Positions 11,293-34,260 of a stretch of 64,000 nucleotides of DNA are shown here, in pieces; within the stretch, counting starts at the first letter, position 1, and every line of letters starts with the position of its first letter. The stretch comes from Rhynchopus sp. YZ270_cl-10 (Eukaryota), in NCBI GenBank assembly GCA_964035575.1, contig OZ037837.1, positions 248,001-312,000 on the forward strand, given 5' to 3'. A program made the position numbers and the translations under genes. The notes under the pieces are model-generated. The model did not search any database, was not told the origin of the DNA, and worked only from the letters and a program-made list of their open reading frames with translations.

Positions 11293-11455
11293 GGGGAGAT
11301 CTGGTGTACAGATCGTGATCCATCGATGAGGTCCCAAAAGCAAAAATAAAACAATGTGAGGAGGGAGTTTCGTCTACTGTGACGTGCAGAGGAAAGGAAA
11401 ACACACCGGGGGGGGGAAATAATTTGTGAAAACTATTCCTGATGAAGGTGGTGTA
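11293..11455 (-). mobile_element. Short remnant of YR retroelement family B
   Basis: Diverged match to 17095-17207 continuing through GGAAAACACACC into a match to 21316-21358. Confidence 0.8.
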
Positions 11456-13424: not shown

Positions 13425-14178
13425 GTTTTTGTAGCAAATGCCAGCTGGTCTGAAGAGTGATCTGACCATATTCCCCAGGTATAACTGGTACTCAAAAAAT
13501 GAATTGGCGAAGGAATCTTGCACTTTTGACCATCACACATTACATGTGTTTTTAAGGCAAAAATGACCGAAAAAGCTGCTTTTTGGCTGAATGCCAACCT
13601 TCAAAAATATTGTCATTTTTTTATAACGACTGGCAAAACATTTTTTTTTTGCCCACAATATCTCCTAACTATCCGATTTTCTGGTCCGGTAATTTTTTAG
13701 AAGAACAAACAATTTTTCAAATTTTTCATTTTTTTGGTCAAATCCAGCCTATGGTGAGGGTGTGTGTGGGTGGGTAGTGTGTGTGGGTGTGGGTGGCGCA
13801 CATCCTTATAGTAAAAACAAAAAAACTAACGTTTTTTAGAATTTAAATCTGAACTGGAGTGTGTGTACTGGGCAGTTTCACTCCCCAGTACACACACTCC
13901 AGCTAACTGCACTGGGTTTTCAGGCGAAAAGTGGCCTGTTGAAAAAGTGGTGTTTTTGTAGCAAATGCCAGCTGGTCTGAAGAGTGATCTGACCATATTC
14001 CCCAGGTATAACTGGTACTCAAAAAATGAATTGGCGAAGGAATCTTGCACTTTTGACCATCACACATTACATGTGTTTTTAAGGCAAAAATGACCGAAAA
14101 AGCTGCTTTTTGGCTGAATGCCAACCTTCAAAAATATTGTCATTTTTTTATAACGACTGGCAAAACATTTTTTTTTTG
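13425..14178. repeat. Identical 227-bp direct repeat (13425-13651 / 13952-14178)
   Basis: Base-for-base match at offset 527; the second copy is cut at its T10G tract by element A. Confidence 0.9.
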
Positions 14179-14413
14179 TATACAACAGACGAAGCGGTAC
14201 GCGTACGGTTGTAAAGAAATAATACAGACCGAAATGTTTGGGCGTCTTCGGTTCGAATGATTGGAATTGTGTGTGTAGTTCAGACATAAATACTGGCTCT
14301 TCTATCTTGTTCTTTTATTCATTGTTTTCCTTTCATTGCCCTTTGCTTGTGCTCCCCGACTCCAATTCAACCAACACTTACAGAGGGGGGTCAAAAAGTT
14401 ATTAGCGTTTTTC

Positions 14414-14446
<33 letters not shown>

Positions 14447-14449
<3 letters not shown>

Positions 14450-17100
14450 CCGTTTGAGGGCAGATCCAGAGACACTTTTGTTTTGGATGAGGTGGACTGG
14501 GTGAGCGCTAGACCTTTGCCTATTCCGGCGCAGCCCGCTCTCCTTCAACATGGTTGCGTCTTCCCCTCATGCCCCGTCGCTCATACCTCGCAGTATTGCT
14601 GGATCTGCGGATACGGCGCCCATCAGCAGTGTGTCAAGGATAAGCTCCCCACGCAAGCCATCGCCGCCGCTTTTCTCGTCAATTACCACACCGGTGAGTT
14701 TACCTGCCCTGTATGCGCCTGGGTGGACGAGGAGCCGGCCGATGTAGACCCTGTTGCGAACCTGCCTCAGCCGCCACTACACCAGGATCCTGAGCCTATT
14801 CCGCAGGGGGACCCGATTCAGGACCAGCCGCAGCCTCAGTTGGCACAGCTCATTGCACAGCTCATCGCACAGCAGCAGGACCAGCCGCCACCGCAGCTAC
14901 CCGTACCGCAGGAACAGCAGCAGCCAGGGCACGTGGCGCAGCATCCGCAGCCGCCTGTGCTCCCGGCGCAGCATCCCGTACATCAGAACCAGCAGCAGCC
15001 AGGGCACGTGGCGCAGCATCCGCAGCCGCCTGTGCTCCCGGCGCAGCATCCCGTACATCAAAACCAGCAGCAGCCAGGGCACGTGGCGCAGCATCCGCAG
15101 CCGCCTGTGCTCCCGGCGCAGCTCCCAGGACAGCCGAATCAGCAGCCGCCTCCGCAGATGGCGCAGCTTCCTGCCCAAGGTCTCGCGCAGGCCATCGCGC
15201 AGCTACTCGGGCCTCACGCGGCCCCCCCGCCGGGTCCGCAGCAGCAGCAGCAGCAGCAGCAGCAGCCGGCACAGCTGATCGCGCAGCTCCTGGCCCTACC
15301 GGCCCAACAGCCCCCTCCTGCCCAGCAAGCCCAGCCGCCGGCCCCGGGCGCGGCTCAGCAGCAGGGGGTCCCTCAGCAGGCGCAAGCCGTGCCCCAGCTT
15401 GATGCGCTAGCGCCGATCCTGCAGCAACTCTTGGCTCCGCAGCTGGCCCTACAAAACGTCATCCGGGACGTGGCCCAGCTGCGGAGCCAAGCCGGTATGG
15501 CCCTCCCCCACAATTTTAACCCCTTTTGTGCCATTGATTGGCGTCCCTTCCTCCACAACCCACAGAAGATCGGCGTACTTCGCTGGAAGCTGAAGGAGGA
15601 AGGCGGCGCACCCGCGGTTGCCTTGCGCTCCCTCCCTGCCGCCGCTAGCGCAGAAGATTGTGCCCTCGCACAAGCGCACGACAGAGTGCACGCCACTCTC
15701 TCGGGAATGCGCCGCGAGGACCCCCCCGCCAACGACGACCGCTTGTCCGACCTCCACCAACTGCTCACTTGGGCATATCGGTGTTTGTTGGTCAAGAAGT
15801 ATGATCTCGCAACGGGACATGCTTACCTTGTGCTGGCACTCGAGAAGGATTGGCAATCCTTTTCGACGGGCCACCAGGCACGCTACTCCGACCAGGCCAT
15901 ACGGACTGGGAAGGACGCGGCCCTGGATCGCAAGGACCGGTTTCGAGGGTCGCGGGGGTCGGGGAACAAGCGAGAGAGGGATACCGATAGGGAGCAGGGA
16001 AAGGGGGGGAAGCAGGGGGGGAAGCAGGGGGGGAAGCAGGGGGGGAAGCAGGGGGGGAAGCAGGGGGGGAAGCAGGGGGGGAAGCAGGGGGGGAAGCAGG
16101 GGGGGAAGCAGGGGGGGAAGCAGGGGGGGAAGCAGGGGGGGAAGCAGGGGGGGAAGCAGGGGGGGAAGCAGGGGGGGAAGCAGGGGGGGAAGCAGGGGGG
16201 GAAGCAGGGGGGGAAGCAGGGGGGGAAGCAGGGGGGGAAGCAGGGGGGGAAGCAGGGGGGGAAGCAGGGGGGGAAGCAGGGGGGGAAGCAGGGGGGGAAG
16301 CAGGGGGGGAAGCAGGGGGGGAAGCAGGGGGGGAAGCAGGGGGGGAAGCAGGGGGGGAAGCAGGGGGGGAAGCAGGGGGGGAAGCAGGGGGGGAAGCAGG
16401 GGGGGAAGCAGGGGGGGAAGCAGGGGGGGAAGCAGGGGGGGAAGCAGGGGGGGAAGCAGGGGGGGAAGCAGGGGGGGAAGCAGGGGGGGAAGCAGGGGGG
16501 GAAGCAGGGGGGGAAGCAGGGGGGGAAGCAGGGGGGGAAGCAGGGGGGGAAGCAGGGGGGGAAGCAGGGGGGGAAGCAGGGGGGGAAGCAGGGGGGGAAG
16601 CAGGGGGGGAAGCAGGGGGGGAAGCAGGGGGGGAAGCAGGGGGGGAAGCAGGGGGGGAAGCAGGGGGGGAAGCAGGGGGGGAAGCAGGGGGGGAAGCAGG
16701 GGGGGAAGCAGGGGGGGAAGCAGGGGGGGAAGCAGGGGGGGAAGCAGGGGGGGAAGCAGGGGGGGAAGCAGGGGGGGAAGCAGGGGGGGAAGCAGGGGGG
16801 GAAGCAGGGGGGGAAGCAGGGGGGGAAGCAGGGGGGGAAGCAGGGGGGGAAGCAGGGGGGGAAGCAGGGGGGGAAGCAGGGGGGGAAGCAGGGGGGGAAG
16901 CAGGGGGGGAAGCAGGGGGGGAAGCAGGGGGGGAAGCAGGGGGGGAAGCAGGGGGGGAAGCAGGGGGGGAAGCAGGGGGGGAAGCAGGGGGGGAAGCAGG
17001 GGGGGAAGCAGGGGGGGAAGCAGGGGGGGAAGCAGGGGGGGAAACAGGGGGGGAAGCAGGGGGGGAAGCAGGGGGGGAAGCAGGGGGGGAAGCAGGGGAG
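14447..17100 (+). CDS. Family A Gag-like ORF, 5' part (PHD-like finger, Q/P-rich region, GGKQ repeats); continues at 21502-22675
   Basis: C-x4-C...CxxC-x4-H-xx-C...CxxC at the N-terminus; 3x75-bp internal repeat; array variation (AAG/AAA) is synonymous in the GGKQ frame. Confidence 0.75.
16003..17094 (+). repeat. 12-bp tandem array (GGGGGGGAAGCA) x~91
   Basis: Directly visible; one AAA variant near 17043. Confidence 0.97.
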
Positions 17101-17322
17101 ATCTGGTGTACAAATAGTGATCCGTCGATGAGGTCCTGAAAGCGCAACAAAAACAATGTGAGGAGGGGTTTCGTTTATTGTGACGTACGAGGGAAGGAAA
17201 ACACACCATATACCGCTTTGGTACATCGTTTCCAGTCCGATTGACATGTGTACGACCACCACACTCTTTTGAAGAAAGGACAAGAGAAAAAGAGAAAGAA
17301 TAAAAGAAATCACAAATGCATA

Positions 17323-19866
17323 TCACTCTGAAAAACCAAAAGAATCAACCTTCTTGTGAACACGGTCCCAACACAGCGGTACCGCTATCGTTCCCTCAGA
17401 GAGATGTGTGCGCCGGGATAACTGATCCGCAGTGCTGTTCTCCTCTGAGGCGATCCACTCAACACGAAGGTGGTGTGGTTGCACAAAAGAAAAAATATAA
17501 CGTAAAAATAGGTTCCCTAGACGAGACTTTGTATGTCCCCGTCTGATCGCATGCGCCAAGCCCTCGTTGTCCACCAGCAGGAGGGTCCCACTCTTTGAGG
17601 AACCGCTCTCCAATGCAGCTCTGATGCCCTTCATCGCAGCTTCTGCCTCCAGCAGGAAGATGTCGCGGTGCGTCGCAGCCTGCACCCACTGTCCCCAGTC
17701 CGCCCCGGCCTCGGCATCGTCCAGGTGCTGCCACACAATGCCCCAACCAGTCGTACTCGCGTCCGTCCACACCACCGTGTCCCATGCAGAAGCCGGCTCC
17801 GGCAATGAAAAATCCCGAATGGGGCGCACGAAAGCATCGACAATCTCAGCCATCTCCCTCCGCAAGTCATCCGGGATCACCACCTCTACGTCCCAGTCCA
17901 GTTCGCCTCTCACGATCTTCGTGGACCACCCACTGAGGCACCGGAGTATGGCGTCGAAGTGACACAGCGGAACGCCCAGGACATGTAGCACTCGCATAGC
18001 AATACCCACCATCTGCCATATGCGCCGAATCGACAACTTCCACGCAGACGCAAATGAAACAAAAATCAGCATCACCTTCTCCCTCCACGTGCTCGGAAAC
18101 CGCAATACACCCTGCTCAGGTGACCACTCCACACCAATGTACTCCAAAGTCCGCACTGGGCTGAGGCACGATTTCTTCTCGTTTATTTCTGCTCCTGCAA
18201 AACTGAACCGTTCCAGGATCCCTGCTACCGATGCCTGAACTCCTTCACAAGACTCTCCGAAGACAAGGATGTCGTCCAAGTACACCATCGCACGCACGCC
18301 CACTGCTCTACCCACAAGCGCTTCCGCTGTGTTCTGTGCTATGTAGGGGGCCACAGACCAGCCCATCGGCACCCGAGTCCATCTGTACCAGCTTTGCCCG
18401 ACGCGAAAACAGAAGAAAGAGGAGACGTTGTTGTGGATAGGAAGTTGGTGGAAGAATCCTTTCAGGTCTATTTTTGCCAACCACGTAGCCTTCCTGTGCT
18501 TCAGGATGTGGAACAGGTGCGGCGGGGCGAAGAGGTGGAACTTTGGGGGCTTTGGCATCACGCAGTTGATGGGACGGCCGTCAATCACCGTGCGGTGAAT
18601 CAGCGGATCAGACTTCGGAACCGTAAACACCTTGACCACTCCGCGGACACACTCACGTTTCGTCACCTTCATGCAGACACCAGCCTTCAAACATGCCGAC
18701 ACAAAAGAGGGAGGGAGGTTGGATTTCGGTCCTGGGATGGGGATCTTGCCTGACTTCACCTCCGAAATAGCGTTAGGGTTCGTCATCCAGCTTGCGAAAT
18801 GTGGGTCCATACCCGCTTCCGTCGCCAGTTGCGACAGACGTTGCACGTTGATGGTGGAGGTCGGGAAGGAGTCAAGCTTTGCCTGTCTGGGGGGTGGCTT
18901 ACCCAAATCGGGCCACGTCAGGGAAGACTCTCCGGACTGCTCACCCGATACCTCATTCTCATGTTCCTCCAATATCCCCCGATAGCCCTCCTGCAGACCC
19001 CGAATCACTGAAGAGAAGACAGCAGATTCGCCTCCAGCGTTCGTCGACCCCGTGTGTTCGTCCTCAGGTAACGCACCGTCTCTGCTTCGTTCGCGTGTCT
19101 GAGGAGCTCCCGCAGCTCGCTTCTTTCCACTCCCGTCTTCTCCACCTCCTGGATCGCCCCCCGTCGTAACGAATGTAGCCATGCTGCGTTGGGAAACACC
19201 TTCTTCATAGCACGTTTCAGGCTTTCGTACACATTTGAATTCCCGCCGAAGACTAGCTGTTTTTCGTCCTTGATGCTTCGCATGAATCTCACCGCTACCG
19301 CAGTCAGTCTCCCTGGAGGCATGTTGATGGGGGGCCGCCATCCCTTGCATCCTTTCTCCCGCGCAAAGAATTCCCCCCCCACGGTGTCCAGCTTCTGCGG
19401 TGTGTCCGAGCGGAATTCCCTCCAATCTACCTTCGTGATGAAGCGCAGGTCGGGAACGCGAGCTCTCGATACCCATGCAATCGCGGCCAGTGCTGCAGCC
19501 GGCTTGTTCCCTTGCGACCACAGCGTCTCTATTGCAGTTGAAGCTTCTGTGGTGGTCATTGGTGGTGCCTGTCGCGGGCGGATCATCGTGCTCAAACGTA
19601 TAAGTCCTTTCTTTGCCTCCAGCAGCTTCCGCGTTCGAACTCCTCGCATGCCCATGCTCAGCGACTTTCGCACGATCACCTCCACGTAGGTCTGTACAGT
19701 CTTCGGAGAAGCCGATGCCAGCATCCTGTGCGCGTAGCCGATGATGAGGTCGTCGGGGGGGAGGCCGTCGCGCTGCGTCGCACGCCACTCCATAAACCGG
19801 TCGAAGACCCGGTCTTGCTCCGCCCGGTACTTCGGGGCGTTCGCAAACTGACCGAGCTGGTCCCAT
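17323..19866 (-). CDS. Reverse transcriptase / RNase H (family B)
   Basis: VFTVPK, IDGRPIN, KIDLKGFFHQ, RVPMGW, VYLDDIL, LEYIG; RNase H WTDAS..GWG, IFLLE, LVDN, NSTADQLSR. True start uncertain. Confidence 0.93.
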   Translation of the reverse strand: MGPARSVCERPEVPGGARPGLRPVYGVACDAARRPPPRRPHHRLRAQDAGIGFSEDCTDLRGGDRAKVAEHGHARSSNAEAAGGKERTYTFEHDDPPATGTTNDHHRSFNCNRDAVVAREQAGCSTGRDCMGIESSRSRPALHHEGRLEGIPLGHTAEAGHRGGGILCAGERMQGMAAPHQHASRETDCGSGEIHAKHQGRKTASLRREFKCVRKPETCYEEGVSQRSMATFVTTGGDPGGGEDGSGKKRAAGAPQTRERSRDGALPEDEHTGSTNAGGESAVFSSVIRGLQEGYRGILEEHENEVSGEQSGESSLTWPDLGKPPPRQAKLDSFPTSTINVQRLSQLATEAGMDPHFASWMTNPNAISEVKSGKIPIPGPKSNLPPSFVSACLKAGVCMKVTKRECVRGVVKVFTVPKSDPLIHRTVIDGRPINCVMPKPPKFHLFAPPHLFHILKHRKATWLAKIDLKGFFHQLPIHNNVSSFFCFRVGQSWYRWTRVPMGWSVAPYIAQNTAEALVGRAVGVRAMVYLDDILVFGESCEGVQASVAGILERFSFAGAEINEKKSCLSPVRTLEYIGVEWSPEQGVLRFPSTWREKVMLIFVSFASAWKLSIRRIWQMVGIAMRVLHVLGVPLCHFDAILRCLSGWSTKIVRGELDWDVEVVIPDDLRREMAEIVDAFVRPIRDFSLPEPASAWDTVVWTDASTTGWGIVWQHLDDAEAGADWGQWVQAATHRDIFLLEAEAAMKGIRAALESGSSKSGTLLLVDNEGLAHAIRRGHTKSRLGNLFLRYIFSFVQPHHLRVEWIASEENSTADQLSRRTHLSEGTIAVPLCWDRVHKKVDSFGFSE

Positions 19867-20549
19867 TCCAGCGTCCGGTGCAGCAGCTTCCCCAGTACCT
19901 TCCCGTCTCGTTCCGCAAACACCAAGTCCTCCACAGCTTTCGCCCTCTGCAGCGACATCTTCCTCGTCCCAAGCGACATGTGCTCCGGTAGGTGTGGTGG
20001 GGGCAGGACCTCCTTGGGCGGGGTCACCGGGTCCGTCACCAGTTTCGGCCCTGTTCGCCCCGTGTCGCTCTGTCGCACTGTGACCCAGTTCCTTGGGGAG
20101 TTCCTCGTCCCTGTTCGTCCCTTTTCTCCCTTCTGTCGTCCCTCGTCCCTCTTTGTTTGTTGTAGTTGATGTGATTTTTGACGTCGATTCACCCCATAGT
20201 TCGTTCTGTTCGACCCAGTATTTTGACCCTTGTTTCCCCCGGAGTTGTAGATGGTGTTGTTGTTGATGTTGACGCGGTGGTGGCTACTGGCGAAAAGGCT
20301 TCCCCCCTTTGCCTCCTTTCCGTCCGAAGGTCGCCGATGGGTCGAACCTCGTGCGCTTCGATCCCCTGTCGTTGTAGTTGTTGGAGGAGGTGGTGCTGTG
20401 GCGTCTCTTCGTGCCTGCAAAGCGCGCATTCGCTGCCGTCGCTGCCAGCATCGCTGCACGGCGTTGGGGGGTGGTCGAAGTGCCCATCGATGTACGGGAA
20501 CGGAACGCCCTGGCCGCCTCCAGCCCCATCGTGAAACGGTAGTGCACAC
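19005..20549 (-). CDS. Tyrosine recombinase (family B)
   Basis: Catalytic set intact: SRARVPDL (R), HSLRRG (HxxR), LRH, TVRY. Start uncertain; low-complexity N-terminus overlaps gag. Confidence 0.9.
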   Translation of the reverse strand: MCTTVSRWGWRRPGRSVPVHRWALRPPPNAVQRCWQRRQRMRALQARRDATAPPPPTTTTTGDRSARGSTHRRPSDGKEAKGGSLFASSHHRVNINNNTIYNSGGNKGQNTGSNRTNYGVNRRQKSHQLQQTKRDEGRQKGEKGRTGTRNSPRNWVTVRQSDTGRTGPKLVTDPVTPPKEVLPPPHLPEHMSLGTRKMSLQRAKAVEDLVFAERDGKVLGKLLHRTLEWDQLGQFANAPKYRAEQDRVFDRFMEWRATQRDGLPPDDLIIGYAHRMLASASPKTVQTYVEVIVRKSLSMGMRGVRTRKLLEAKKGLIRLSTMIRPRQAPPMTTTEASTAIETLWSQGNKPAAALAAIAWVSRARVPDLRFITKVDWREFRSDTPQKLDTVGGEFFAREKGCKGWRPPINMPPGRLTAVAVRFMRSIKDEKQLVFGGNSNVYESLKRAMKKVFPNAAWLHSLRRGAIQEVEKTGVERSELRELLRHANEAETVRYLRTNTRGRRTLEANLLSSLQ

Positions 20550-21288
20550 ATAGCAGGTCGTCCAGGAGGATCACGAGGAGGTCCCCCATGTTCTTCCCCT
20601 TCAGAATCTTCTGGATCAGGTTCAGAGTTCCGCGTGCCGCGTCCCGTGTGTCCCCTTCCTTATCAGGCACGTATTTTGCGAGTTGCTCCAACAGTTCGGT
20701 TTGGCCAAACCTGTCGAGTTCTTGCCAACGCGTCGGATTGAGTGCCACGGTTTCAGCGTCGGGCCCCATGTCGTCACTGCGGATGTCGCTGCGGTCGTCC
20801 GGTTGGTCGTCTGGGAAGTCCTGTGCGGCCTCGAAAGCGGCGATGCGGTCCTGCCCATCAGTCTCGCGTACCACCGGCGCAAACACAAAACGTTTCTTCA
20901 CTGCCTCGGCCGCCACTGCCTGCTCCTCTGTCTCCACAGAGGCCTTCGGAGAAGATACGTCCTCAGAGCAAGGGAAAGATGCCGCGTCCTCGCCACTCAG
21001 CAACTGCGCAAAGGTCACGTCCCCAAGGCCGTTCCTCACCGTGGCCAGAAAGAGGGCGAGACGGCGGGGCTTCGTCTTCTCCCACGCCGCCTCATTCGAC
21101 CTGGTGACCTCAATCATCACCACACCCCCCAATCCTGCCAGGGTTGCCAGGATGTAGTCCCCCGGCAAGAAGGAATCCTTCAGCGCCGTCTTCACCACAT
21201 CTGGCGCTCCCGCACAACATACGCGCATCACTTCACTCACCTTGAAGTGACAGGCCTTGCGCCCCTCAAACTCAGCTGTCAAGTCCAT
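20284..21288 (-). CDS. Gag-like ORF1 (family B)
   Basis: First ORF of the element; ATG (MDLTAEF) directly after the 24-bp repeat; basic tail ending RKGGKGGKPFRQ. Assignment is positional. Confidence 0.7.
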   Translation of the reverse strand: MDLTAEFEGRKACHFKVSEVMRVCCAGAPDVVKTALKDSFLPGDYILATLAGLGGVVMIEVTRSNEAAWEKTKPRRLALFLATVRNGLGDVTFAQLLSGEDAASFPCSEDVSSPKASVETEEQAVAAEAVKKRFVFAPVVRETDGQDRIAAFEAAQDFPDDQPDDRSDIRSDDMGPDAETVALNPTRWQELDRFGQTELLEQLAKYVPDKEGDTRDAARGTLNLIQKILKGKNMGDLLVILLDDLLCVHYRFTMGLEAARAFRSRTSMGTSTTPQRRAAMLAATAANARFAGTKRRHSTTSSNNYNDRGSKRTRFDPSATFGRKGGKGGKPFRQ

Positions 21289-21501
21289 ATTCGTACGAGG
21301 GAAGGAAAACACACCGGGGAAACAAATTTGTGGAAAAAATTCCTGATGAAGGTGGTGTGTTTTGACTTTCCCGTTCCAACCTTTGCAGAGCAAAGAGGTA
21401 ATAAAAGCAAAAATGGACCAAAGCATCTTATACTATCATCTACAGTAACACCAGATCTCCCCATGTCGCAGCAAAGCTGCTTTAACAAGTTAACTGGGGA
21501 G

Positions 21502-22675
21502 GGGGAAGCAGGGGGGGAAACAGGGGGGGAAGCAGGGGGGGAAGCAGGGGGGGAAGCAGGGGGGGAAACAGGGGGGGAAGCAGGGGGGGAAACAGGGGGG
21601 GAAACAGGGGGGGAAGCAGGGGGGGAAGCAGGGGGGGAAACAGGGGGGGAAACAGGGGGGGAAGCAGGGGGGGAAACAGGGGGGGAAACAGGGGGGGAAG
21701 CAGGGGGGGAAGCAGGGGGGGAAGCAGGGGGGGAAGCAGGGGGGGAAGCAGGGGGGGAAGCAGGGGGGGAAGCAGGGGGGGAAGCAGGGGGGGAAGCAGG
21801 GGGGGAAGCAGGGGGGGAAGCAGGGGGGGAAACAGGGGGGGAAGCAGGGGGGGAAGCAGGGGGGGAAACAGGGGGGGAAGCAGGGGGGGAAACAGGGGGG
21901 GAAACAGGGGGGGAAGCAGGGGGGGAAGCAGGGGGGGAAGCAGGGGGGGAAGCAGGGGGGGAAGCAGGGGGGGAAGCAGGGGGGGAAACAGGGGGGGAAG
22001 CAGGGGGGGAAGCAGGGGGGGAAGCAGGGGGGGAAACAGGGGGGGAAGCAGGGGGGGAAGCAGGGGGGGAAACAGGGGGGGAAACAGGGGGGGAAGCAGG
22101 GGGGGAAACAGGGGGGGAAACAGGGGGGGAAGCAGGGGGGGAAGCAGGGGGGGAAGCAGGGGGGGAAGCAGGGGGGGAAGCAGGGGGGGAAGCAGGGGGG
22201 GAAGCAGGGGGGGAAGCAGGGGGGGAAGCAGGGGGGGAAGCAGGGGGGGAAGCAGGGGGGGAAGCAGGGGGGGAAGCAGGGGGGGAAGCAGGGGGGGAAA
22301 CAGGGGGGGAAGCAGGGGGGGAAGCAGGGGGGGAAACAGGGGGGGAAACAGGGGGGGAAGCAGGGGGGGAAACAGGGGGGGAAACAGGGGGGGAAGCAGG
22401 GGGGGAAGCAGGGGGGGAAGCAGGGGGGGAAGCAGGGGGGGAAGCAGGGGGGGAAGCAGGGGGGGAAGCAGGGGGGGAAGCAGGGGGGGAAGCAGGGGGG
22501 GAAACAGGGGGGGAAGCAGGGGGGGAAGCAGGGGGGGAAGCAGGGGGGGAAGCAGGGGGGGAAGCAGGGGGGGAAGCAGGGGGGGAAGCAGGGGGGGAAG
22601 CAGGGGGGGAAGCAGGGGGGGAAACAGGGGGGGAAACAGGGGGGGAAACAGGGGACAAAACCTGCGACGCAATGA
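21502..22675 (+). repeat. 12-bp tandem array x~96 (mixed AAG/AAA), the 3' part of family A gag, ending GGKQGTKPATQ-stop
   Basis: Directly visible; TGA at 22673-22675 in the GGKQ frame. Confidence 0.93.
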
Positions 22676-25395
22676 CTAGGGTCCGCTCTTCCGAGCAACT
22701 CTCATCAAGATTCTTTTTACTCTCACCTTCTTTTTCCCCCCCCCTCCAAGTGGGGACGTTCCCGTCAGGTAGTAGCGTCTTTGGGAACTTTTCAGAGGGA
22801 ACAGATCGAGGCCTCTCTCAGGGAAACCCTCGTTCAGTCCCTCGCCCCGTCCACCCAGTCCTCGATGCAGAGTGTTTTACGCACATACCTGCAATTCAAG
22901 GAAAACTGGGAGTGGGCGACGGGCCAGTCCCTGGAACACGCGGTGGCGGTACTCTTGTTTGCAGAAAAGAAGCGGGGAGAGGGGGCAAAAAAGTCCACAG
23001 TCCTTCAGTATACCATGTCCCTAGCGGGTGCACTGAAGAGGCTGGATGGAGACCTGATTTCCCACTCCCAGCTCGTACAAGATTATCGCCAGGCCCTCAA
23101 AAGAGGCGGCGCATTGCTCTCGGAGCGCCAGGCGAAACCTGCCCTGTTTTCACAGGTGCAGACAGTTCTGGATCGGCTTCCGATGGGGGTGCTCCGTCTC
23201 GCCATTGCTTTGTGTTGGGCGGGGGCGGCTCGTGCGTCGGACGTGCTGCGCTTGAGAAGGTCGGAGCTAGTGATTCGGTCGGACTCGTCGATCCAGGTGC
23301 ACTGGACAAAGACGAAGTCCGATCCTTATCAACTAGGTCGCTTCTCGGGAGTGGTGCTCCGTCCTCAAGAGACCCGTCTTCTTTTTGTTCACCTCTCCTC
23401 CCTCACCCCCCAACAACAACTTTTCCCTTTTTCTCTAACGACAAAGGTCATCTCGGACGAGTTGAAGAAGACCTGCCCGGCGCTCACGTCCCACTCTCTC
23501 AGAAGGGGGGCGGTGCAGCACCTGGTGGGCCGGAATGTGGACCTCGAGATGATTCGCCAGCTCACCCGTCACGCGGACGTGAACTCCGTCGTGCGTTATG
23601 CGCACGAGGCGGGGGGTTCGGTCGCGGCGAGTTCGGCGGAAACATCGCGACTCCTCCTATCCTAAATCCCGCTTTCCCCTCCCCTTTATTTACACCGTGT
23701 TCTCAAAGCTTGTTTACTAATCCTTCTTTTTATTCTGCTCCATTTTCTCCTTCCCCCCCTCCCTTTTCTGTGTCTACGTGTGAGGAAGAAGACTACGGGC
23801 CGGGCCTCGACTCGCTATATGATTCTGTTTGTGTGGTTAAGATTCATAAGTCGAGTGTCAGGGCCCCGGCTGTGGTTAGCCTTTCTGAGAAGCTTGCACC
23901 CATTTGTTCCTCCTTTCTGCATTTGGATAGAGTGAAAGAACTGGACAGAGAAGGTGAGCTCAAAGGGATTTTAGATCTTATTACTGATCCCAAATGTTTT
24001 TACTCAGCCTTCAGACCGGGGTCTCTGGACCTCATTTTTTCCAACCCCAGTGTTTTTTCGTCGTCTATCTCCAGAAACATGGCACACCATCTGGACAGGT
24101 TATTGGAATACGGGGTTGTTAAACGTGTGTCAGCTCGTCAAACAGTGGTATTGCACGCATTCACCGTACCTAAGAAATCTGCGGGTGTTCGTTTTGTCGC
24201 AGATGGGCGTAAATTGAATAAGTTAATGTACCGGCCTCCTGAGATGCTTCTTCCGAAGATACCTCAGGTGATCGACAGAGTTCTGGAGTCTTCCTGGGCA
24301 GTACTTGCGGACGGCAAAAGTTGGTTTTACCAATTTGGCCTACACGAGGAAATCCAGGCTTTTTTCGGTATCAATCTGGGTCATCAGAGAGGAGATTTCA
24401 TCCAAACCAGACTCATTGCTATGTGCATGGGGTGGTCTTTCGCACCTTGTATTGCTCACCGCACTGCGAGGGTGCTCCTCCCTGATGACTCGGGTGTTAC
24501 CTGGGTGGACAACTTCATTGTTTTAGATAAGTCTCGCGAGGCTGTTACTTTTTCGTTTTCTCAGTTTTTAGCACGTTGTAAACACGTGAATGCTGTGCTA
24601 AACTTAGAAGATGAGTTTTACGGTGAACCGTTGCAAGTTTTTTGTGCCTTAGGAATTGAGTTTGATTTGGTGAATCACCGTTTTCGCGCTGAGCACAAGT
24701 GGGTCACCAAGTTGTTAAACTGTGAGGAATGGGAAAAGGTCAAGTCAAATTCTTGCACTATTCGCCAATTTTTCAAAGTTTTTGGTTCTTTGGTGTGGAA
24801 CTCTTATTCTGTTCGTTCACCCCTTTGCTACCTTCCATCTTCCCTTTCTTTTATCCGTGATGTGGCGCGGACCACTACCCAGTCACCCGAGGCGTGGGAC
24901 TTACCCCTCGATGTCAGGAGCTCTACCCTCGCCGAGCTCTCACTCCGTATGAGCGAAGTAGAGGTGAACAATTGGCAAGGGAAGCGTCCGACACAGGAGG
25001 TAACTGTGTGGTCTGATGCGTCTCAGGAAGGGTGGGCGGCGGTTTTCGAAGGTGAGAAGGAAACGGTCGCTCAGGGTCTGTTTACAGAGAACCCCGAGTG
25101 GCATATTTATATTAAAGAAATTTTTGCGGCGGCTAAAGCCATCCAACTTACCGCTTCCATGTTTAATAATAAAAAAGTTTTGTTGATGGTTGACAACATG
25201 GCTGCTGTGTACAGCATTCAACGGGGCCATTCGTCCAACTTCATCTCAAATACACTCTTGGCCAAATTATTTCGAATCGCTGAAGAAGCGAATTTGTATA
25301 TCGTGTGCACTTGGGTATCTACTTTGGTTCAGAAGGCGGATCCCTTTTCACGGGATTCGAAAGCCAAGGATCCTATTTTATTGGATGAGTTGTAA
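22672..25395 (+). CDS. Reverse transcriptase / RNase H (family A)
   Basis: AFTVPKK, RFVADGRKLN, LADGKSWFYQ, MCMGW, TWVDNF, ALGIEFD; RNase H WSDAS..GW, IYIKE, MVDN, ADPFSR. ATG overlaps the gag stop (ATGA); start uncertain. Confidence 0.9.
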   Translation: MTRVRSSEQLSSRFFLLSPSFSPPLQVGTFPSGSSVFGNFSEGTDRGLSQGNPRSVPRPVHPVLDAECFTHIPAIQGKLGVGDGPVPGTRGGGTLVCRKEAGRGGKKVHSPSVYHVPSGCTEEAGWRPDFPLPARTRLSPGPQKRRRIALGAPGETCPVFTGADSSGSASDGGAPSRHCFVLGGGGSCVGRAALEKVGASDSVGLVDPGALDKDEVRSLSTRSLLGSGAPSSRDPSSFCSPLLPHPPTTTFPFFSNDKGHLGRVEEDLPGAHVPLSQKGGGAAPGGPECGPRDDSPAHPSRGRELRRALCARGGGFGRGEFGGNIATPPILNPAFPSPLFTPCSQSLFTNPSFYSAPFSPSPPPFSVSTCEEEDYGPGLDSLYDSVCVVKIHKSSVRAPAVVSLSEKLAPICSSFLHLDRVKELDREGELKGILDLITDPKCFYSAFRPGSLDLIFSNPSVFSSSISRNMAHHLDRLLEYGVVKRVSARQTVVLHAFTVPKKSAGVRFVADGRKLNKLMYRPPEMLLPKIPQVIDRVLESSWAVLADGKSWFYQFGLHEEIQAFFGINLGHQRGDFIQTRLIAMCMGWSFAPCIAHRTARVLLPDDSGVTWVDNFIVLDKSREAVTFSFSQFLARCKHVNAVLNLEDEFYGEPLQVFCALGIEFDLVNHRFRAEHKWVTKLLNCEEWEKVKSNSCTIRQFFKVFGSLVWNSYSVRSPLCYLPSSLSFIRDVARTTTQSPEAWDLPLDVRSSTLAELSLRMSEVEVNNWQGKRPTQEVTVWSDASQEGWAAVFEGEKETVAQGLFTENPEWHIYIKEIFAAAKAIQLTASMFNNKKVLLMVDNMAAVYSIQRGHSSNFISNTLLAKLFRIAEEANLYIVCTWVSTLVQKADPFSRDSKAKDPILLDEL
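22781..23665 (+). CDS. Tyrosine recombinase (family A)
   Basis: AARASDV (R), TKTK, HSLRRG, TRH, VVRY; frame is open back to the gag stop; nested within the RT frame. Confidence 0.92.
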   Translation: MGTFQREQIEASLRETLVQSLAPSTQSSMQSVLRTYLQFKENWEWATGQSLEHAVAVLLFAEKKRGEGAKKSTVLQYTMSLAGALKRLDGDLISHSQLVQDYRQALKRGGALLSERQAKPALFSQVQTVLDRLPMGVLRLAIALCWAGAARASDVLRLRRSELVIRSDSSIQVHWTKTKSDPYQLGRFSGVVLRPQETRLLFVHLSSLTPQQQLFPFSLTTKVISDELKKTCPALTSHSLRRGAVQHLVGRNVDLEMIRQLTRHADVNSVVRYAHEAGGSVAASSAETSRLLLS

Positions 25396-25642
25396 TTCTT
25401 TTTACGGACTGGTTGGTCTTTATTTGTATAACAGTTTCGCACCGTTTTGTATCTCCACCTTAATTCTTCTAATTCGTTTCGTCTATTCCCGTTAAATTTG
25501 TTGTGGGAACTTGTCTGTAAGAATTGTTTTTCTGTTTATCTGTTCGCGTGGCGTCCCTCAGGGTCCTTAGGGTCCTGGAGGATGCGTCCAATGAAAATCA
25601 CGTCGTGTAGAAGAGTTCAAGAATGTAGGTTTTATTATTTTT

Positions 25643-25900
25643 GTATACAACAGACGAAGCGGTACGCGTACGGTTGTAAAGAAATAATACAGACCGAAAT
25701 GTTTGGGCGTCTTCGGTTCGAATGATTGGAATTGTGTGTGTAGTTCAGACATAAATACTGGCTCTTCTATCTTGTTCTTTTATTCATTGTTTTCCTTTCA
25801 TTGCCCTTTGCTTGTGCTCCCCGACTCCAATTCAACCAACACTTACAGAGGGGGGTCAAAAAGTTATTAGCGTTTTTCATTTAAAAAAAAAAAAAAAAAA
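25643..25900 (+). repeat. Second copy of the family A 5' end, head-to-tail with the 3' end
   Basis: Identical to 14178-14435 up to the poly(A) tract, then unrelated sequence; third copy at 30595-30855. Confidence 0.9.
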
Positions 25901-26442
25901 GAAAGAAGGAAAGGAGATAATTGGCGTTATTGTTGTTATTGGGATTTACAGTCTCACATTGTCTTTTTCGTTCGTTGTTCTATTTAGACACGTTGGGCCT
26001 AATGCGCCTGCACTGTTCGATGCTAGTATGTAAGCACAGAGCACCTAGGGTCTGACTATTACGCGCAGTACCGTCGAGGGACGTACTGTTGCAACGAACT
26101 TCACACCAAGAAGGAATCCTTCAGCGCCGTCTTCACCACATCTGGCGCTCCCGCACAACATACGCGCATCACTTCACTCACCTTGAAGTGACAGGCCTTG
26201 CGCCCCTCAAACTCAGCTGTCAAGTCCATATTCGTACGAGGGAAGGAAAACACACCGGGGAAACAAATTTGTGGAAAAAATTCCTGATGAAGGTGGTGTG
26301 TTTTGACTTTCCCGTTCCAACCTTTGCAGAGCAAAGAGGTAATAAAAGCAAAAATGGACCAAAGCATCTTATACTATCATCTACAGTAACACCAGATCTC
26401 CCCATGTCGCAGCAAAGCTGCTTTAACAAGTTAACTGGGGAG

Positions 26443-27628
26443 GGGGAAGCAGGGGGGGAAACAGGGGGGGAAGCAGGGGGGGAAGCAGGGGGGGAAGCAG
26501 GGGGGGAAACAGGGGGGGAAGCAGGGGGGGAAACAGGGGGGGAAACAGGGGGGGAAGCAGGGGGGGAAGCAGGGGGGGAAACAGGGGGGGAAACAGGGGG
26601 GGAAGCAGGGGGGGAAACAGGGGGGGAAACAGGGGGGGAAGCAGGGGGGGAAGCAGGGGGGGAAGCAGGGGGGGAAGCAGGGGGGGAAGCAGGGGGGGAA
26701 GCAGGGGGGGAAGCAGGGGGGGAAGCAGGGGGGGAAGCAGGGGGGGAAGCAGGGGGGGAAGCAGGGGGGGAAACAGGGGGGGAAGCAGGGGGGGAAGCAG
26801 GGGGGGAAACAGGGGGGGAAGCAGGGGGGGAAACAGGGGGGGAAACAGGGGGGGAAGCAGGGGGGGAAGCAGGGGGGGAAGCAGGGGGGGAAGCAGGGGG
26901 GGAAGCAGGGGGGGAAGCAGGGGGGGAAACAGGGGGGGAAGCAGGGGGGGAAGCAGGGGGGGAAGCAGGGGGGGAAACAGGGGGGGAAGCAGGGGGGGAA
27001 GCAGGGGGGGAAACAGGGGGGGAAACAGGGGGGGAAGCAGGGGGGGAAACAGGGGGGGAAACAGGGGGGGAAGCAGGGGGGGAAGCAGGGGGGGAAGCAG
27101 GGGGGGAAGCAGGGGGGGAAGCAGGGGGGGAAGCAGGGGGGGAAGCAGGGGGGGAAGCAGGGGGGGAAGCAGGGGGGGAAGCAGGGGGGGAAGCAGGGGG
27201 GGAAGCAGGGGGGGAAGCAGGGGGGGAAGCAGGGGGGGAAACAGGGGGGGAAGCAGGGGGGGAAGCAGGGGGGGAAACAGGGGGGGAAACAGGGGGGGAA
27301 GCAGGGGGGGAAACAGGGGGGGAAACAGGGGGGGAAGCAGGGGGGGAAGCAGGGGGGGAAGCAGGGGGGGAAGCAGGGGGGGAAGCAGGGGGGGAAGCAG
27401 GGGGGGAAGCAGGGGGGGAAGCAGGGGGGGAAGCAGGGGGGGAAGCAGGGGGGGAAACAGGGGGGGAAGCAGGGGGGGAAGCAGGGGGGGAAGCAGGGGG
27501 GGAAGCAGGGGGGGAAGCAGGGGGGGAAGCAGGGGGGGAAGCAGGGGGGGAAGCAGGGGGGGAAGCAGGGGGGGAAACAGGGGGGGAAACAGGGGGGGAA
27601 ACAGGGGACAAAACCTGCGACGCAATGA
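26443..27628 (+). repeat. Duplicated 12-bp array x~97
   Basis: Same AAG/AAA pattern as 21502-22675 with one extra unit. Confidence 0.93.
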
Positions 27629-30348
27629 CTAGGGTCCGCTCTTCCGAGCAACTCTCATCAAGATTCTTTTTACTCTCACCTTCTTTTTCCCCCCCCCTCC
27701 AAGTGGGGACGTTCCCGTCAGGTAGTAGCGTCTTTGGGAACTTTTCAGAGGGAACAGATCGAGGCCTCTCTCAGGGAAACCCTCGTTCAGTCCCTCGCCC
27801 CGTCCACCCAGTCCTCGATGCAGAGTGTTTTACGCACATACCTGCAATTCAAGGAAAACTGGGAGTGGGCGACGGGCCAGTCCCTGGAACACGCGGTGGC
27901 GGTACTCTTGTTTGCAGAAAAGAAGCGGGGAGAGGGGGCAAAAAAGTCCACAGTCCTTCAGTATACCATGTCCCTAGCGGGTGCACTGAAGAGGCTGGAT
28001 GGAGACCTGATTTCCCACTCCCAGCTCGTACAAGATTATCGCCAGGCCCTCAAAAGAGGCGGCGCATTGCTCTCGGAGCGCCAGGCGAAACCTGCCCTGT
28101 TTTCACAGGTGCAGACAGTTCTGGATCGGCTTCCGATGGGGGTGCTCCGTCTCGCCATTGCTTTGTGTTGGGCGGGGGCGGCTCGTGCGTCGGACGTGCT
28201 GCGCTTGAGAAGGTCGGAGCTAGTGATTCGGTCGGACTCGTCGATCCAGGTGCACTGGACAAAGACGAAGTCCGATCCTTATCAACTAGGTCGCTTCTCG
28301 GGAGTGGTGCTCCGTCCTCAAGAGACCCGTCTTCTTTTTGTTCACCTCTCCTCCCTCACCCCCCAACAACAACTTTTCCCTTTTTCTCTAACGACAAAGG
28401 TCATCTCGGACGAGTTGAAGAAGACCTGCCCGGCGCTCACGTCCCACTCTCTCAGAAGGGGGGCGGTGCAGCACCTGGTGGGCCGGAATGTGGACCTCGA
28501 GATGATTCGCCAGCTCACCCGTCACGCGGACGTGAACTCCGTCGTGCGTTATGCGCACGAGGCGGGGGGTTCGGTCGCGGCGAGTTCGGCGGAAACATCG
28601 CGACTCCTCCTATCCTAAATCCCGCTTTCCCCTCCCCTTTATTTACACCGTGTTCTCAAAGCTTGTTTACTAATCCTTCTTTTTATTCTGCTCCATTTTC
28701 TCCTTCCCCCCCTCCCTTTTCTGTGTCTACGTGTGAGGAAGAAGACTACGGGCCGGGCCTCGACTCGCTATATGATTCTGTTTGTGTGGTTAAGATTCAT
28801 AAGTCGAGTGTCAGGGCCCCGGCTGTGGTTAGCCTTTCTGAGAAGCTTGCACCCATTTGTTCCTCCTTTCTGCATTTGGATAGAGTGAAAGAACTGGACA
28901 GAGAAGGTGAGCTCAAAGGGATTTTAGATCTTATTACTGATCCCAAATGTTTTTACTCAGCCTTCAGACCGGGGTCTCTGGACCTCATTTTTTCCAACCC
29001 CAGTGTTTTTTCGTCGTCTATCTCCAGAAACATGGCACACCATCTGGACAGGTTATTGGAATACGGGGTTGTTAAACGTGTGTCAGCTCGTCAAACAGTG
29101 GTATTGCACGCATTCACCGTACCTAAGAAATCTGCGGGTGTTCGTTTTGTCGCAGATGGGCGTAAATTGAATAAGTTAATGTACCGGCCTCCTGAGATGC
29201 TTCTTCCGAAGATACCTCAGGTGATCGACAGAGTTCTGGAGTCTTCCTGGGCAGTACTTGCGGACGGCAAAAGTTGGTTTTACCAATTTGGCCTACACGA
29301 GGAAATCCAGGCTTTTTTCGGTATCAATCTGGGTCATCAGAGAGGAGATTTCATCCAAACCAGACTCATTGCTATGTGCATGGGGTGGTCTTTCGCACCT
29401 TGTATTGCTCACCGCACTGCGAGGGTGCTCCTCCCTGATGACTCGGGTGTTACCTGGGTGGACAACTTCATTGTTTTAGATAAGTCTCGCGAGGCTGTTA
29501 CTTTTTCGTTTTCTCAGTTTTTAGCACGTTGTAAACACGTGAATGCTGTGCTAAACTTAGAAGATGAGTTTTACGGTGAACCGTTGCAAGTTTTTTGTGC
29601 CTTAGGAATTGAGTTTGATTTGGTGAATCACCGTTTTCGCGCTGAGCACAAGTGGGTCACCAAGTTGTTAAACTGTGAGGAATGGGAAAAGGTCAAGTCA
29701 AATTCTTGCACTATTCGCCAATTTTTCAAAGTTTTTGGTTCTTTGGTGTGGAACTCTTATTCTGTTCGTTCACCCCTTTGCTACCTTCCATCTTCCCTTT
29801 CTTTTATCCGTGATGTGGCGCGGACCACTACCCAGTCACCCGAGGCGTGGGACTTACCCCTCGATGTCAGGAGCTCTACCCTCGCCGAGCTCTCACTCCG
29901 TATGAGCGAAGTAGAGGTGAACAATTGGCAAGGGAAGCGTCCGACACAGGAGGTAACTGTGTGGTCTGATGCGTCTCAGGAAGGGTGGGCGGCGGTTTTC
30001 GAAGGTGAGAAGGAAACGGTCGCTCAGGGTCTGTTTACAGAGAACCCCGAGTGGCATATTTATATTAAAGAAATTTTTGCGGCGGCTAAAGCCATCCAAC
30101 TTACCGCTTCCATGTTTAATAATAAAAAAGTTTTGTTGATGGTTGACAACATGGCTGCTGTGTACAGCATTCAACGGGGCCATTCGTCCAACTTCATCTC
30201 AAATACACTCTTGGCCAAATTATTTCGAATCGCTGAAGAAGCGAATTTGTATATCGTGTGCACTTGGGTATCTACTTTGGTTCAGAAGGCGGATCCCTTT
30301 TCACGGGATTCGAAAGCCAAGGATCCTATTTTATTGGATGAGTTGTAA
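27625..30348 (+). CDS. RT / RNase H (family A), duplicate copy
   Basis: Translation identical to 22672-25395. Confidence 0.88.
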   Translation: MTRVRSSEQLSSRFFLLSPSFSPPLQVGTFPSGSSVFGNFSEGTDRGLSQGNPRSVPRPVHPVLDAECFTHIPAIQGKLGVGDGPVPGTRGGGTLVCRKEAGRGGKKVHSPSVYHVPSGCTEEAGWRPDFPLPARTRLSPGPQKRRRIALGAPGETCPVFTGADSSGSASDGGAPSRHCFVLGGGGSCVGRAALEKVGASDSVGLVDPGALDKDEVRSLSTRSLLGSGAPSSRDPSSFCSPLLPHPPTTTFPFFSNDKGHLGRVEEDLPGAHVPLSQKGGGAAPGGPECGPRDDSPAHPSRGRELRRALCARGGGFGRGEFGGNIATPPILNPAFPSPLFTPCSQSLFTNPSFYSAPFSPSPPPFSVSTCEEEDYGPGLDSLYDSVCVVKIHKSSVRAPAVVSLSEKLAPICSSFLHLDRVKELDREGELKGILDLITDPKCFYSAFRPGSLDLIFSNPSVFSSSISRNMAHHLDRLLEYGVVKRVSARQTVVLHAFTVPKKSAGVRFVADGRKLNKLMYRPPEMLLPKIPQVIDRVLESSWAVLADGKSWFYQFGLHEEIQAFFGINLGHQRGDFIQTRLIAMCMGWSFAPCIAHRTARVLLPDDSGVTWVDNFIVLDKSREAVTFSFSQFLARCKHVNAVLNLEDEFYGEPLQVFCALGIEFDLVNHRFRAEHKWVTKLLNCEEWEKVKSNSCTIRQFFKVFGSLVWNSYSVRSPLCYLPSSLSFIRDVARTTTQSPEAWDLPLDVRSSTLAELSLRMSEVEVNNWQGKRPTQEVTVWSDASQEGWAAVFEGEKETVAQGLFTENPEWHIYIKEIFAAAKAIQLTASMFNNKKVLLMVDNMAAVYSIQRGHSSNFISNTLLAKLFRIAEEANLYIVCTWVSTLVQKADPFSRDSKAKDPILLDEL
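27734..28618 (+). CDS. Tyrosine recombinase (family A), duplicate copy
   Basis: Translation identical to 22781-23665. Confidence 0.9.
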   Translation: MGTFQREQIEASLRETLVQSLAPSTQSSMQSVLRTYLQFKENWEWATGQSLEHAVAVLLFAEKKRGEGAKKSTVLQYTMSLAGALKRLDGDLISHSQLVQDYRQALKRGGALLSERQAKPALFSQVQTVLDRLPMGVLRLAIALCWAGAARASDVLRLRRSELVIRSDSSIQVHWTKTKSDPYQLGRFSGVVLRPQETRLLFVHLSSLTPQQQLFPFSLTTKVISDELKKTCPALTSHSLRRGAVQHLVGRNVDLEMIRQLTRHADVNSVVRYAHEAGGSVAASSAETSRLLLS

Positions 30349-31218
30349 TTCTTTTTACGGACTGGTTGGTCTTTATTTGTATAACAGTTCGCACCGTTTT
30401 GTATCTCCACCTTAATTCTTCTAATTCGTTTCGTCTATTCCCGTTAAATTTGTTGTGGGAACTTGTCTGTAAGAATTGTTTTTCTGTTTATCTGTTCGCG
30501 TGGCGTCCCTCAGGGTCCTTAGGGTCCTGGAGGATGCGTCCAATGAAAATCACGTCGTGTAGAAGAGTTCAAGAATGTAGGTTTTATTATTTTTGTATAC
30601 AACAGACGAAGCGGTACGCGTACGGTTGTAAAGAAATAATACAGACCGAAATGTTTGGGCGTCTTCGGTTCGAATGATTGGAATTGTGTGTGTAGTTCAG
30701 ACATAAATACTGGCTCTTCTATCTTGTTCTTTTATTCATTGTTTTCCTTTCATTGCCCTTTGCTTGTGCTCCCCGACTCCAATTCAACCAACACTTACAG
30801 AGGGGGGTCAAAAAGTTATTAGCGTTTTTCATTTAAAAAAAAAAAAAAAAAAAAAGAAAGAAGGAAAAGAGATAATTGGCGTTATTGTTGTTATTGGGAT
30901 TTACAGTCTCACATTGTCTTTTTCGTTCGTTGTTCTATTTAGACACGTTGGGCCTAATGCGCCTGCACTGTTCGATGCTAGTATGTAAGCACAGAGCACC
31001 TAGGGTCTGACTATTACGCGCAGTACCGTCGAGGGACGTACTGTTGCAACGAACTTCACACCATTTCTCCGACTGTTTAGGTAGCCGCTTACATACAGCT
31101 CACAGGCGTCGCAGGCGGTGCACAAATACATCAGGAAGCACCTCTTGTGCCCCATACACACAGAGGATGTAACTGCCAACAGCGAAGTCCAGGTAGTCGG
31201 AAGAGCACAACTATTAGT

Positions 31219-33288: not shown

Positions 33289-34260
33289 TTTGTTCGTGTG
33301 TTCTTGTGGAAACAGATGTGTTCTAAACAGAAAAGACACCCCCCCACCACCCAAAAGCTGTGACTGTGTAGTGTGTTCTATGTTTTGAAGTCCCAACCCC
33401 TCTCGTGACTGACAACCTTTGCACTATTGCACAGTGAATGCGCACAAGGATGCAGCTCATTTCCACAGAGCTTTGCACTAGACATAAGGTACGCTAGTGT
33501 GCCCACAACTATGTACCCAATCGAGACACAAAGACATGGTGAATGATGAATATTACATTCATACAAATCTGCATACACAAACGAACTATGATGTGATGCT
33601 GGGGTGCGTGTGGTGAGGGAATAGGAAGTCATATAAAGTGTGCGGGTATGTTAGGTTATTATAGGTCAAGAACACGTGGAGCAGAAGCTGAGAGGTGGCA
33701 ACGATGGAGGACAAACAAAAAGGGGCATTTATTAATTCAAGCACCTCTGCCAACAAACGTGTGTAACAGAAATACTTTGATCCCCCTTCCCTCCCTCCCC
33801 TCCCTATCTGCCTACCTACCTCCTGTCGTGCCTCCCACACACACACACCATCTGCACACCTCATCGGACTCCTCTTGCAGAACACATGCAGTGCATGCTC
33901 CTCCTTCTCCGCCACATGAGATCAACACAACCAAGTCGCCACATGGCACCTTCCCCTTCACGGCAGCAGTTGGCATTAAAGGTTTATTAGGCATGAGTTG
34001 GTGACACGTCGACACGTTGCTGTGGTGTTGCTGCACCGTGCACAGCAATGCTACTGAACATTACCGACACCATCCGTACCCCTAGACTCACATTTCTTCT
34101 CAACGCAGCCCCACAGAGCTCTACTTTGCAGTGACCAGCTTTTTTTTGCAGCACGGACAAAACTCTACTAGTACACGCGAACGGAGCCTCGAGGAGACTA
34201 GTTGTTGCATCGACAAACAGAGCCTCAGCCTAACCACCTTGTTGTGTGGTTGTTGTTTTT

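Follow-up and report, generated by a model that had tools for sequence, protein, structure and literature searches.

Element A is a retrotransposon in the window studied here (the whole 64,000-nucleotide stretch of Rhynchopus sp. YZ270_cl-10 contig OZ037837.1, positions 248,001 to 312,000) in which a gag-like gene and a tyrosine recombinase (YR) gene share one reading frame, separated by a single UGA stop codon. We propose that occasional readthrough of this UGA-CU signal yields a Gag-YR fusion in intact copies and is the likeliest route to YR, a reading that sequence comparison leads us to hold at a probability of roughly 0.62. A Gag-YR fusion made in this way had been suggested in a preliminary description of this DNA. 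It is favored because the in-frame layout and the TGA-CT context reappear in distant relatives, because insertions and deletions (indels) downstream of the stop preserve the frame, and because conserved YR sequence precedes the first ATG; it is weakened by published VIPER elements, whose junctions read TGA-A. The junction and the overlapping frame for reverse transcriptase and RNase H (RT/RH) comprise the following features:

21511 to 22650, forward strand: array of 95 units of 12 nucleotides (nt), whose GGKQ frame reaches the TGA and whose GGEA/GGET frame is the RT frame
22672 to 22674, forward strand: ATG of the RT/RH frame, lying over the gag stop (AUGA stop-start)
22672 to 25395, forward strand: RT/RH open reading frame (ORF), -1 frame, overlapping all of YR; next ATG at 24079
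22673 to 22679, forward strand: gag stop TGA (22673-22675) and CTAG (22676-22679), the candidate readthrough site
22676 to 23665, forward strand: YR frame, 329 codons, in frame with gag
22711 to 22750, forward strand: pyrimidine tract and AG (22749-22750), a candidate splice acceptor
22733 to 22864, forward strand: conserved stretch of the YR frame before its first ATG, with FPPP, a GR(P)R-like motif, helix 38-54, and the start of helix 58-82

Before the TGA, the GGKQ frame ends as GGKQGTKPATQ, and beyond CTAG it passes directly into YR, just as first described. The absence of a YR ATG until ~22865 is likewise borne out, the first in-frame ATG being codon 64 at 22865; the 35 sense codons originally counted reach only to a TTG at 22781, and 63 precede the ATG. 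UGA-CUA(G) had been put forward as a known readthrough context, and the literature supports this for alphaviruses and mammalian genes (PMC4132726, PMC4615788). The window junction has two marks of type II (UGA-CUA/CGG) readthrough, UGA-CUA(G) and an in-frame downstream ORF. On the two strands of the window, CTAG follows 3 of 2050 TGA triplets, and two of these three are the element A junction and its duplicate. The open 63-codon linker is unremarkable by itself, arising in 31% of dinucleotide shuffles, and linker openness alone was not significant per gag-YR locus (P 0.05 to 0.6). The weight of the readthrough case rests on relatives. Reassignment of UGA was rejected, as 8 of 20 long window ORFs terminate with TGA.

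Other copies of element A were also compared. A diverged copy in run X6 retains TGA-CTAG although the preceding letters differ, assuming that the 30 letters displayed are those closest to the join. In run X1, about four copies appear to share the junction (depth 26 versus 6.5 for a diverged copy), with no difference among those listed at 22640-22786. Two run contigs start at 22753 and were not counted as evidence.

The protein encoded after the stop is a recognizable recombinase whose conserved part begins upstream of its first ATG. Window YR matches Pfam Phage_integrase (PF00589, E 1.3e-8), and the catalytic residues R186, H273, R276/R277, H299, and Y308 are all intact. Its AlphaFold2 model (mean predicted local distance difference test [pLDDT] score of 82.6) has a Cre-like fold (Z 19.4, root mean square deviation 4.7, 271 aligned, model residues 41-328), in which residues 41-63, upstream of the first ATG, already align with Cre from residue 21 onward. 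The ATG sits within helix 58-82, after a helix that aligns with the start of Cre's solved chain and that we take to be the counterpart of Cre's first helix. No ATG lies ahead of the FPPP/GR motif in the window. Across 27 YR relatives, Met occupies the window's first-ATG column in four, and the GR motif upstream of it is visible in 11, many of the others having been called too short to show it. A named YR relative is from Rhynchopus euleeides (47%), and near-identical YR and RT proteins occur on several other contigs.

A search with the RT alignment recovered 22 metagenome loci, 12 of them with an interpretable gag end; the same search of genome contigs and viral contigs gave no loci, nor did a YR alignment search of viral and metagenome contigs. 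The ten loci left out of the junction count had no gag or YR match before RT (L009, L010, L011, L018), a junction off the contig (L013, L015, L016, L020), or no YR match and an unclear junction (L021, L022). Near-identical loci were merged (L002 with L003, L007 with L006), and the gag-YR families compared are the window, L001, L004, L005, L006/7, L008, L014, L017, and L019; the downstream ORF of L004, cut by the contig end, was assigned by kinship, and L019 shows only 20 gag codons. In 9 of 9 gag-YR families, gag and YR share one frame with a single stop between them. In three more families gag shares the frame of RT, again with one stop between them, and the third frame is used by none.

TGA-CT stands at six of the nine gag-YR junctions: CAA-TGA-CTA in the window, AAC-TGA-CTG in L001 and L004, AAC-TGA-CTT in L006/7, AAC-TGA-CTC in L008, and GAC-TGA-CTG in L014. 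These represent four lineages, 32 to 39% identical in RT. As controls, TGA-CT was found at 0 of 26 YR and RT stops of the same elements (after removal of five near-duplicates from 31, none of which had it) and at 0 of 20 long window ORFs. Because the next letter varies among the six families (A, G, G, T, C, G) and a Thr codon in the RT frame would not fix the T, CT appears to be fixed as sequence. In L004, L006, L007, and L008, AACTGACT forms an invariant island between variable flanks; a 4-pair invariant stem common to these loci showed no covariation. Within the L004/L006/L008 clade, an EE(D/N)P motif common to its members lies at distances from the stop that differ by whole codons. These indels precede any YR ATG and the pyrimidine tract, and with an RT-frame stop there in L006/7, the gag/YR frame alone is open throughout the clade.

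The same stop codon is probably also where RT/RH is entered. A 907-amino-acid protein on another contig (P0046) was called with its start at the ATG of the AUGA. The window RT/RH ORF gave no direct Pfam match, but it has 30 relatives, many with PF00078, and is 42 to 51% identical to many PF00078 proteins; its named relatives are from Diplonema ambulator, Flectonema neradi, and D. papillatum (31 to 45%). Together with the R. euleeides YR, these point to a diplonemid as the likely host. Beneath window YR, the -1 frame contains 0 stops compared to 9.3 expected under synonymous permutation (0/2000 permutations), and of nine other loci treated in the same way, seven gave 0/2000, L019 gave 0.002, and L004 gave 0.03. 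Since this frame is kept stop-free under YR, RT is likely translated from near the gag stop; the first RT-frame ATG of relatives is often 200 to 550 codons downstream of it. Canonical -1 slippery heptamers follow the rule X_XXY_YYZ, and five of the nine families (0.16 expected) have one in the gag frame among the last 30 nt ahead of the stop, namely L001, L005, L014, L017, and L019; the heptamer directly abuts the stop in L001, L017, and L019. The window has no such heptamer just before its gag stop and has the overlapping ATG instead. A stop-start, UGAUG, is also found in L017, and the long RT ORF of the P0017 family begins Met-Thr, which corresponds to TGA-C in the next frame (read from the RT ORF alone). 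In L006/7 and L008, heptamers lie 144 to 213 nt after the stop, and because the RT frame of L006/7 is closed three codons past it, RT in the L004/L006/L008 clade would require readthrough first and then a frameshift. The preliminary description had overlooked the RT ATG overlapping the stop, the -1 RT frame open across YR, the heptamers of relatives, and the interruption of gag described below.

Some RT-bearing loci are arranged differently. In L003:964 and L012:401, gag is in frame with RT across TGA-CGA and TGA-AAT, respectively, and a similar GC-rich hairpin lies behind each stop (60-nt z scores of -2.2 and -3.0); these are candidates for structure-stimulated Gag-RT readthrough. A YR ATG lies right behind the stop in L012, and none does in L003. 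Loci L009, L010, L011, and L018 are tandem elements in which a U-rich leader is followed directly by a single long RT/RH ORF; they gave neither a gag nor a YR match and possibly represent a non-autonomous RT-only family. An RT of the window's family is filed under a Nitrospira metagenome-assembled genome (P0037), which likely reflects eukaryotic contamination of the bin.

By its gene order (gag-like, YR, RT/RH) and its YR-RT overlap, element A is best classified as a VIPER-like tyrosine-recombinase retrotransposon; the RT tree covers window, locus, and database proteins. It resembles kinetoplastid VIPER (PMC6681497, PMC12278014) in this order and overlap, in its A1...A2 repeats, and in having a SIRE-like derivative. 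It differs in its likely diplonemid host, in TGA-CT compared to TGA-A, in its long GGKQ array, and in the lack of a CCHC box at the gag end and of a detected B2 repeat. In the supplement of PMC6681497, ORF1 (1-1341) and ORF2 (1342-2359) of Trypanosoma cruzi VIPER are in frame, and inspection by eye of five published junctions (one each from T. cruzi and B. saltans and three from C. fasciculata, among them a copy whose ORF1 is interrupted) found gag-TGA-YR in frame in all, with a slippery heptamer within ~45 nt before each stop. As far as these sequences go, the in-frame gag-stop-YR layout is group-wide in VIPERs and the CU signal is not. The available main text of PMC6681497 and PMC12278014 makes no mention of stop codons or recoding. 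In agreement with the preliminary description, which knew of no readthrough in YR retrotransposons, the literature searched holds no description of recoding in them; subscription papers (among them the original VIPER and DIRS papers) were outside that search.

Well-studied readthrough systems offer partial parallels. In mammalian cells, UGA-CUA alone gives 1.5% and UGA-C 3 to 4% readthrough (PMC4132726, PMC4615788), values that may not hold in diplonemids. Mammalian CUAG readthrough does not require a 3' stimulatory RNA structure. The junction of element A is like those of the alphavirus polyprotein, OPRL1, OPRK1, AQP4, MAPK10, and MDH1, where UGA-CUAG is followed by a conserved in-frame extension (PMC4132726, PMC4615788). 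Unlike in those cases, the extension is a whole enzyme, and relatives fix only CU. The likeness to gammaretrovirus Gag-Pol drawn in the preliminary description is also sound, as this is type III readthrough with UAG-G and a pseudoknot (PMC4615788); there, and in the proposal for Tca2, a gag stop gates a scarce enzyme fusion. Element A differs from both in that the gated product would be a recombinase rather than Pol, in having UGA-CU, in having RT in another frame, and in that no 3' structure was found.

Several observations weigh against readthrough. The hoped-for conservation of TGA-CTAG in related families is partial, with CT kept in six of nine families and CTAG in one of nine (CTA(G), the window itself), and all five published kinetoplastid VIPER junctions read TGA-A; in T. 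cruzi VIPER, an ATG directly follows the stop, so that readthrough is not needed there. The same layout occurs without the motif in L005 (TAG-GAC), L017 (TGA-TGG), and L019 (TGA-AAC). With the window left out, TGA-CT is present in 3 of 6 lineages (binomial p 2e-4, 0.022 expected per junction), and with three published VIPERs and the gag-RT types added in 3 of 12 (p 2e-3), but the motif was cut down from CTAG to CT once the junctions had been compared, and the lineages are related by descent, which makes both p values rough and optimistic. In most families, a pyrimidine tract and then AG follow the stop after 35 to 175 nt. In the window this tract doubles as the LLFPPPSK codons of YR, so FPPP alone proves nothing, and L001, L005-L008, and L014 carry a YR ATG after their tract, which weakens the start-position argument for them. 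Helix 38-54 of the YR model has a pLDDT of just ~58-68. No stable hairpin was found 3' of the window stop (z -1.2, -0.4, and +1.4 over 60, 100, and 150 nt). The linker of the X6 copy appears ~58 nt shorter, which would break the frame. In the window, gag is itself interrupted by a second retrotransposon, element B, the ORF from 14447 stopping at 17131. Finally, a similar readthrough proposal for Candida Tca2 failed a reporter test (PMC7175516).

The best-surviving alternative, which we nonetheless consider unlikely, is that YR is made from a spliced RNA in which a spliced leader, or a cis donor in gag, is joined to AG 22749-22750, with (C/A)TGAC at the stop serving as the branch point. The acceptor-like AG noted at the outset is indeed present behind the tract that starts at 22711. 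A tract with AG occurs in the window, L001, L004-L008, and L014, and it would account for the conservation of FPPP. CTGAC matches the branch-point consensus, which counts in favor of splicing. Nearly all D. papillatum mRNAs also bear a spliced leader (PMC10161547). However, CTRAC lies within 150 to 220 nt of just 1 of 13 likely gag starts, which have U-rich acceptor-like leaders of their own; the distance from motif to tract ranges from 35 to 175 nt; and no clear tract is visible in L017 or L019. A message beginning at 22751 would meet its first ATG only at 22865, within the core-binding domain, and on the structural model it would yield a truncated YR or require the TTG at codon 36. Splicing also leaves unexplained both the whole-codon indels right after the stop and an RT frame that is open from the gag stop, often with no ATG for 200 to 550 codons.

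Less probable again is termination followed by a nearby restart or a change of frame, with YR begun at an AUG or near-cognate codon, or reached by a +1 shift from the RT frame, and no fusion made. Stop-start overlaps do recur (AUGA in the window, UGAUG in L017, an AUG just past the stop in L012). In T. cruzi VIPER, an RT-frame AUG overlaps the stop and a YR AUG comes directly behind it, and one C. fasciculata copy has AUGA (PMC6681497 supplement). The overlap of the window RT ATG with the gag stop is like the AUGA/UAAUG of caliciviruses, influenza B, and the SART1 retrotransposon, where termination-reinitiation is established (PMC10275272), and three of the six TGA-CT families read TGA-CTG, a near-cognate start. 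In contrast, the window, L006/7, and L008 read CTA, CTT, and CTC, which are not usable starts, and the first plausible in-frame near-cognate of the window is the TTG at codon 36, past the conserved GR motif. Unlike in the known reinitiation systems, most relatives do not conserve the RT ATG, whose A is missing from the X6 copy and from the other five TGA-CT families.

Very improbable is that the junction is a by-product, whether of a context that arose by chance or of a nonsense mutation that struck a dead copy of what is naturally a single gag-YR fusion gene. In its favor, element B disables the window copy, TATE copies with a single ORF are known from B. saltans (PMC6681497 supplement), and P0104, P0105, and P0107 join gag-like sequence to YR (though perhaps as spliced gene models). 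Against it, stop and context recur in four distant lineages, the X1 copies seem to have the junction in common, both YR and RT are intact and occur on several contigs, and a weak search among proteins of 582 to 2000 amino acids found no longer YR form. Together with P0014 and P0054, those three are predicted YR-RT or gag-YR(-RT) fusions, which may be frameshifted copies, spliced models, or natural fusions.

Under the readthrough reading, most ribosomes would terminate at UGA and release Gag, while in a few per cent a near-cognate tRNA would decode UGA in its leaky +4C/+5U context to give Gag-YR. Such a fusion would keep YR scarce and tether it to the Gag particle. RT/RH would be entered at the same spot, in the window likely by reinitiation on the stop-overlapping AUG and in several relatives through a -1 shift immediately ahead of the stop. 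We tentatively suggest, at somewhat less than even odds, that the VIPER-like gag stop is a three-way switch, with termination producing Gag, readthrough producing Gag-recombinase, and a -1 shift or AUG restart producing RT/RH.

The remainder of element A is arranged as follows:

3128 to 3303, reverse strand: short non-autonomous derivative (SIRE-like), joining the start of repeat A to a B-like end (90 to 95% matches to 25630-25744 and 25580-25640)
14168 to 14442, forward strand: 5' terminal repeat A1, 98.9% identical to 25631-25904 and 30583-30859
14447 to 16002, forward strand: unique 5' part of ORF1, gag-like by position (ORF 14420-17131, first ATG 14447)
16003 to 17094, forward strand: 12-nt array of 91 units, GGKQ in the gag frame
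25631 to 25904, forward strand: terminal repeat A2, preceded by a B1-like end (~25580-25630)
26108 to 31063, forward strand: tandem duplicate of 21166-26107 with the same junction, TGA 27626-27628 (99.86% over 3461 nt, 100% over 345 nt)
26452 to 27603: third GGKQ array, 96 twelve-nt units

Repeat A1 starts after a T-run within a host 227-nt direct repeat. Of the split repeats A1...B1-A2-B2, A1 and A2 are present, the B-like end is defined from the 3128-3303 piece, and B2 was not found after A2 in this rearranged copy. ORF1 has a Cys/His cluster close to its N terminus and a Gln/Pro-rich middle; it gave no Pfam match above cut-off, so the name gag is purely positional, and it showed no similarity to seven gags of the loci or to P0104. 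Exact look-ups of the gag translation found none, the one of ten queries present being the RT of element B. The preliminary statement that gag and YR are separated only by UGA-CUAG is right for the in-frame junction, but gag is here broken by element B, and the GGKQ frame picks up again only at 21494. Judging by the phase of the repeat, gag of an intact copy would run in frame from its ATG to the TGA. Because element B breaks its gag, the window copy itself cannot make a Gag-YR fusion. The tandem duplicate gives the junction no independent support, since it is near-identical and also lacks the 5' part of gag. This near-perfect duplication of ~5 kb takes in 345 nt of the end of element B and is either a recent event or an assembly artifact. 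The three GGKQ arrays are open in all three frames, the left nearly pure and the right mixed. An X1 contig has 542 letters upstream of 22640 (judged by length), which suggests that other copies of element A have a much shorter array, locally expanded or misassembled in the window.

Other features of the window include the following:

17095 to 21500, reverse strand: element B, a second YR retrotransposon inside the GGKQ array (right boundary approximate)
21432-20284, 20570-19005, and 20283-17323, reverse strand: gag, YR, and RT/RH of element B, respectively
4466 to 5326, reverse strand: Tc1/mariner-like transposase ORF (by eye), with 53-nt inverted repeats at 4377-4429 and 5375-5427
31219-33423, 36860-38947, 40149-42249, 43607-45701, and 47814-49907, reverse strand: five tandem adenylate/guanylate cyclase-like genes, 93 to 95% alike (Pfam Guanylate_cyc tested on the first)

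Element B has a 15-nt inverted repeat at 17095 and ending at 21461. Its layout is the opposite of that in element A: gag shares the RT frame across CAG-TAG-CCA, no ATG occurs for 139 codons, and YR is in +1. Its gag terminates in CCT-TTT-CGC, which we take to resemble a +1 frameshift motif, and seven near-identical proteins of its RT are on record. A short derivative uniting the two end regions of element B lies at 11293-11454, beside a GTGTGAG-type tandem repeat. An ATG at 21463, in the end of element B, is in frame through the array with the RT ORF of element A, probably by coincidence.

The expression of overlapping YR and RT in DIRS-order elements was not addressed in the literature searched, and the junction described here offers a testable answer for the VIPER-like branch, whose published T. 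cruzi, Crithidia, and Bodo copies show this layout too. If the proposal is true, automatic gene calls cut these YR proteins short. A recombinase would join the products of programmed readthrough, with two recoding events at one stop codon, and VIPER-like elements would offer a way into recoding in euglenozoans, a group in which trans-splicing was expected to leave no need for it.

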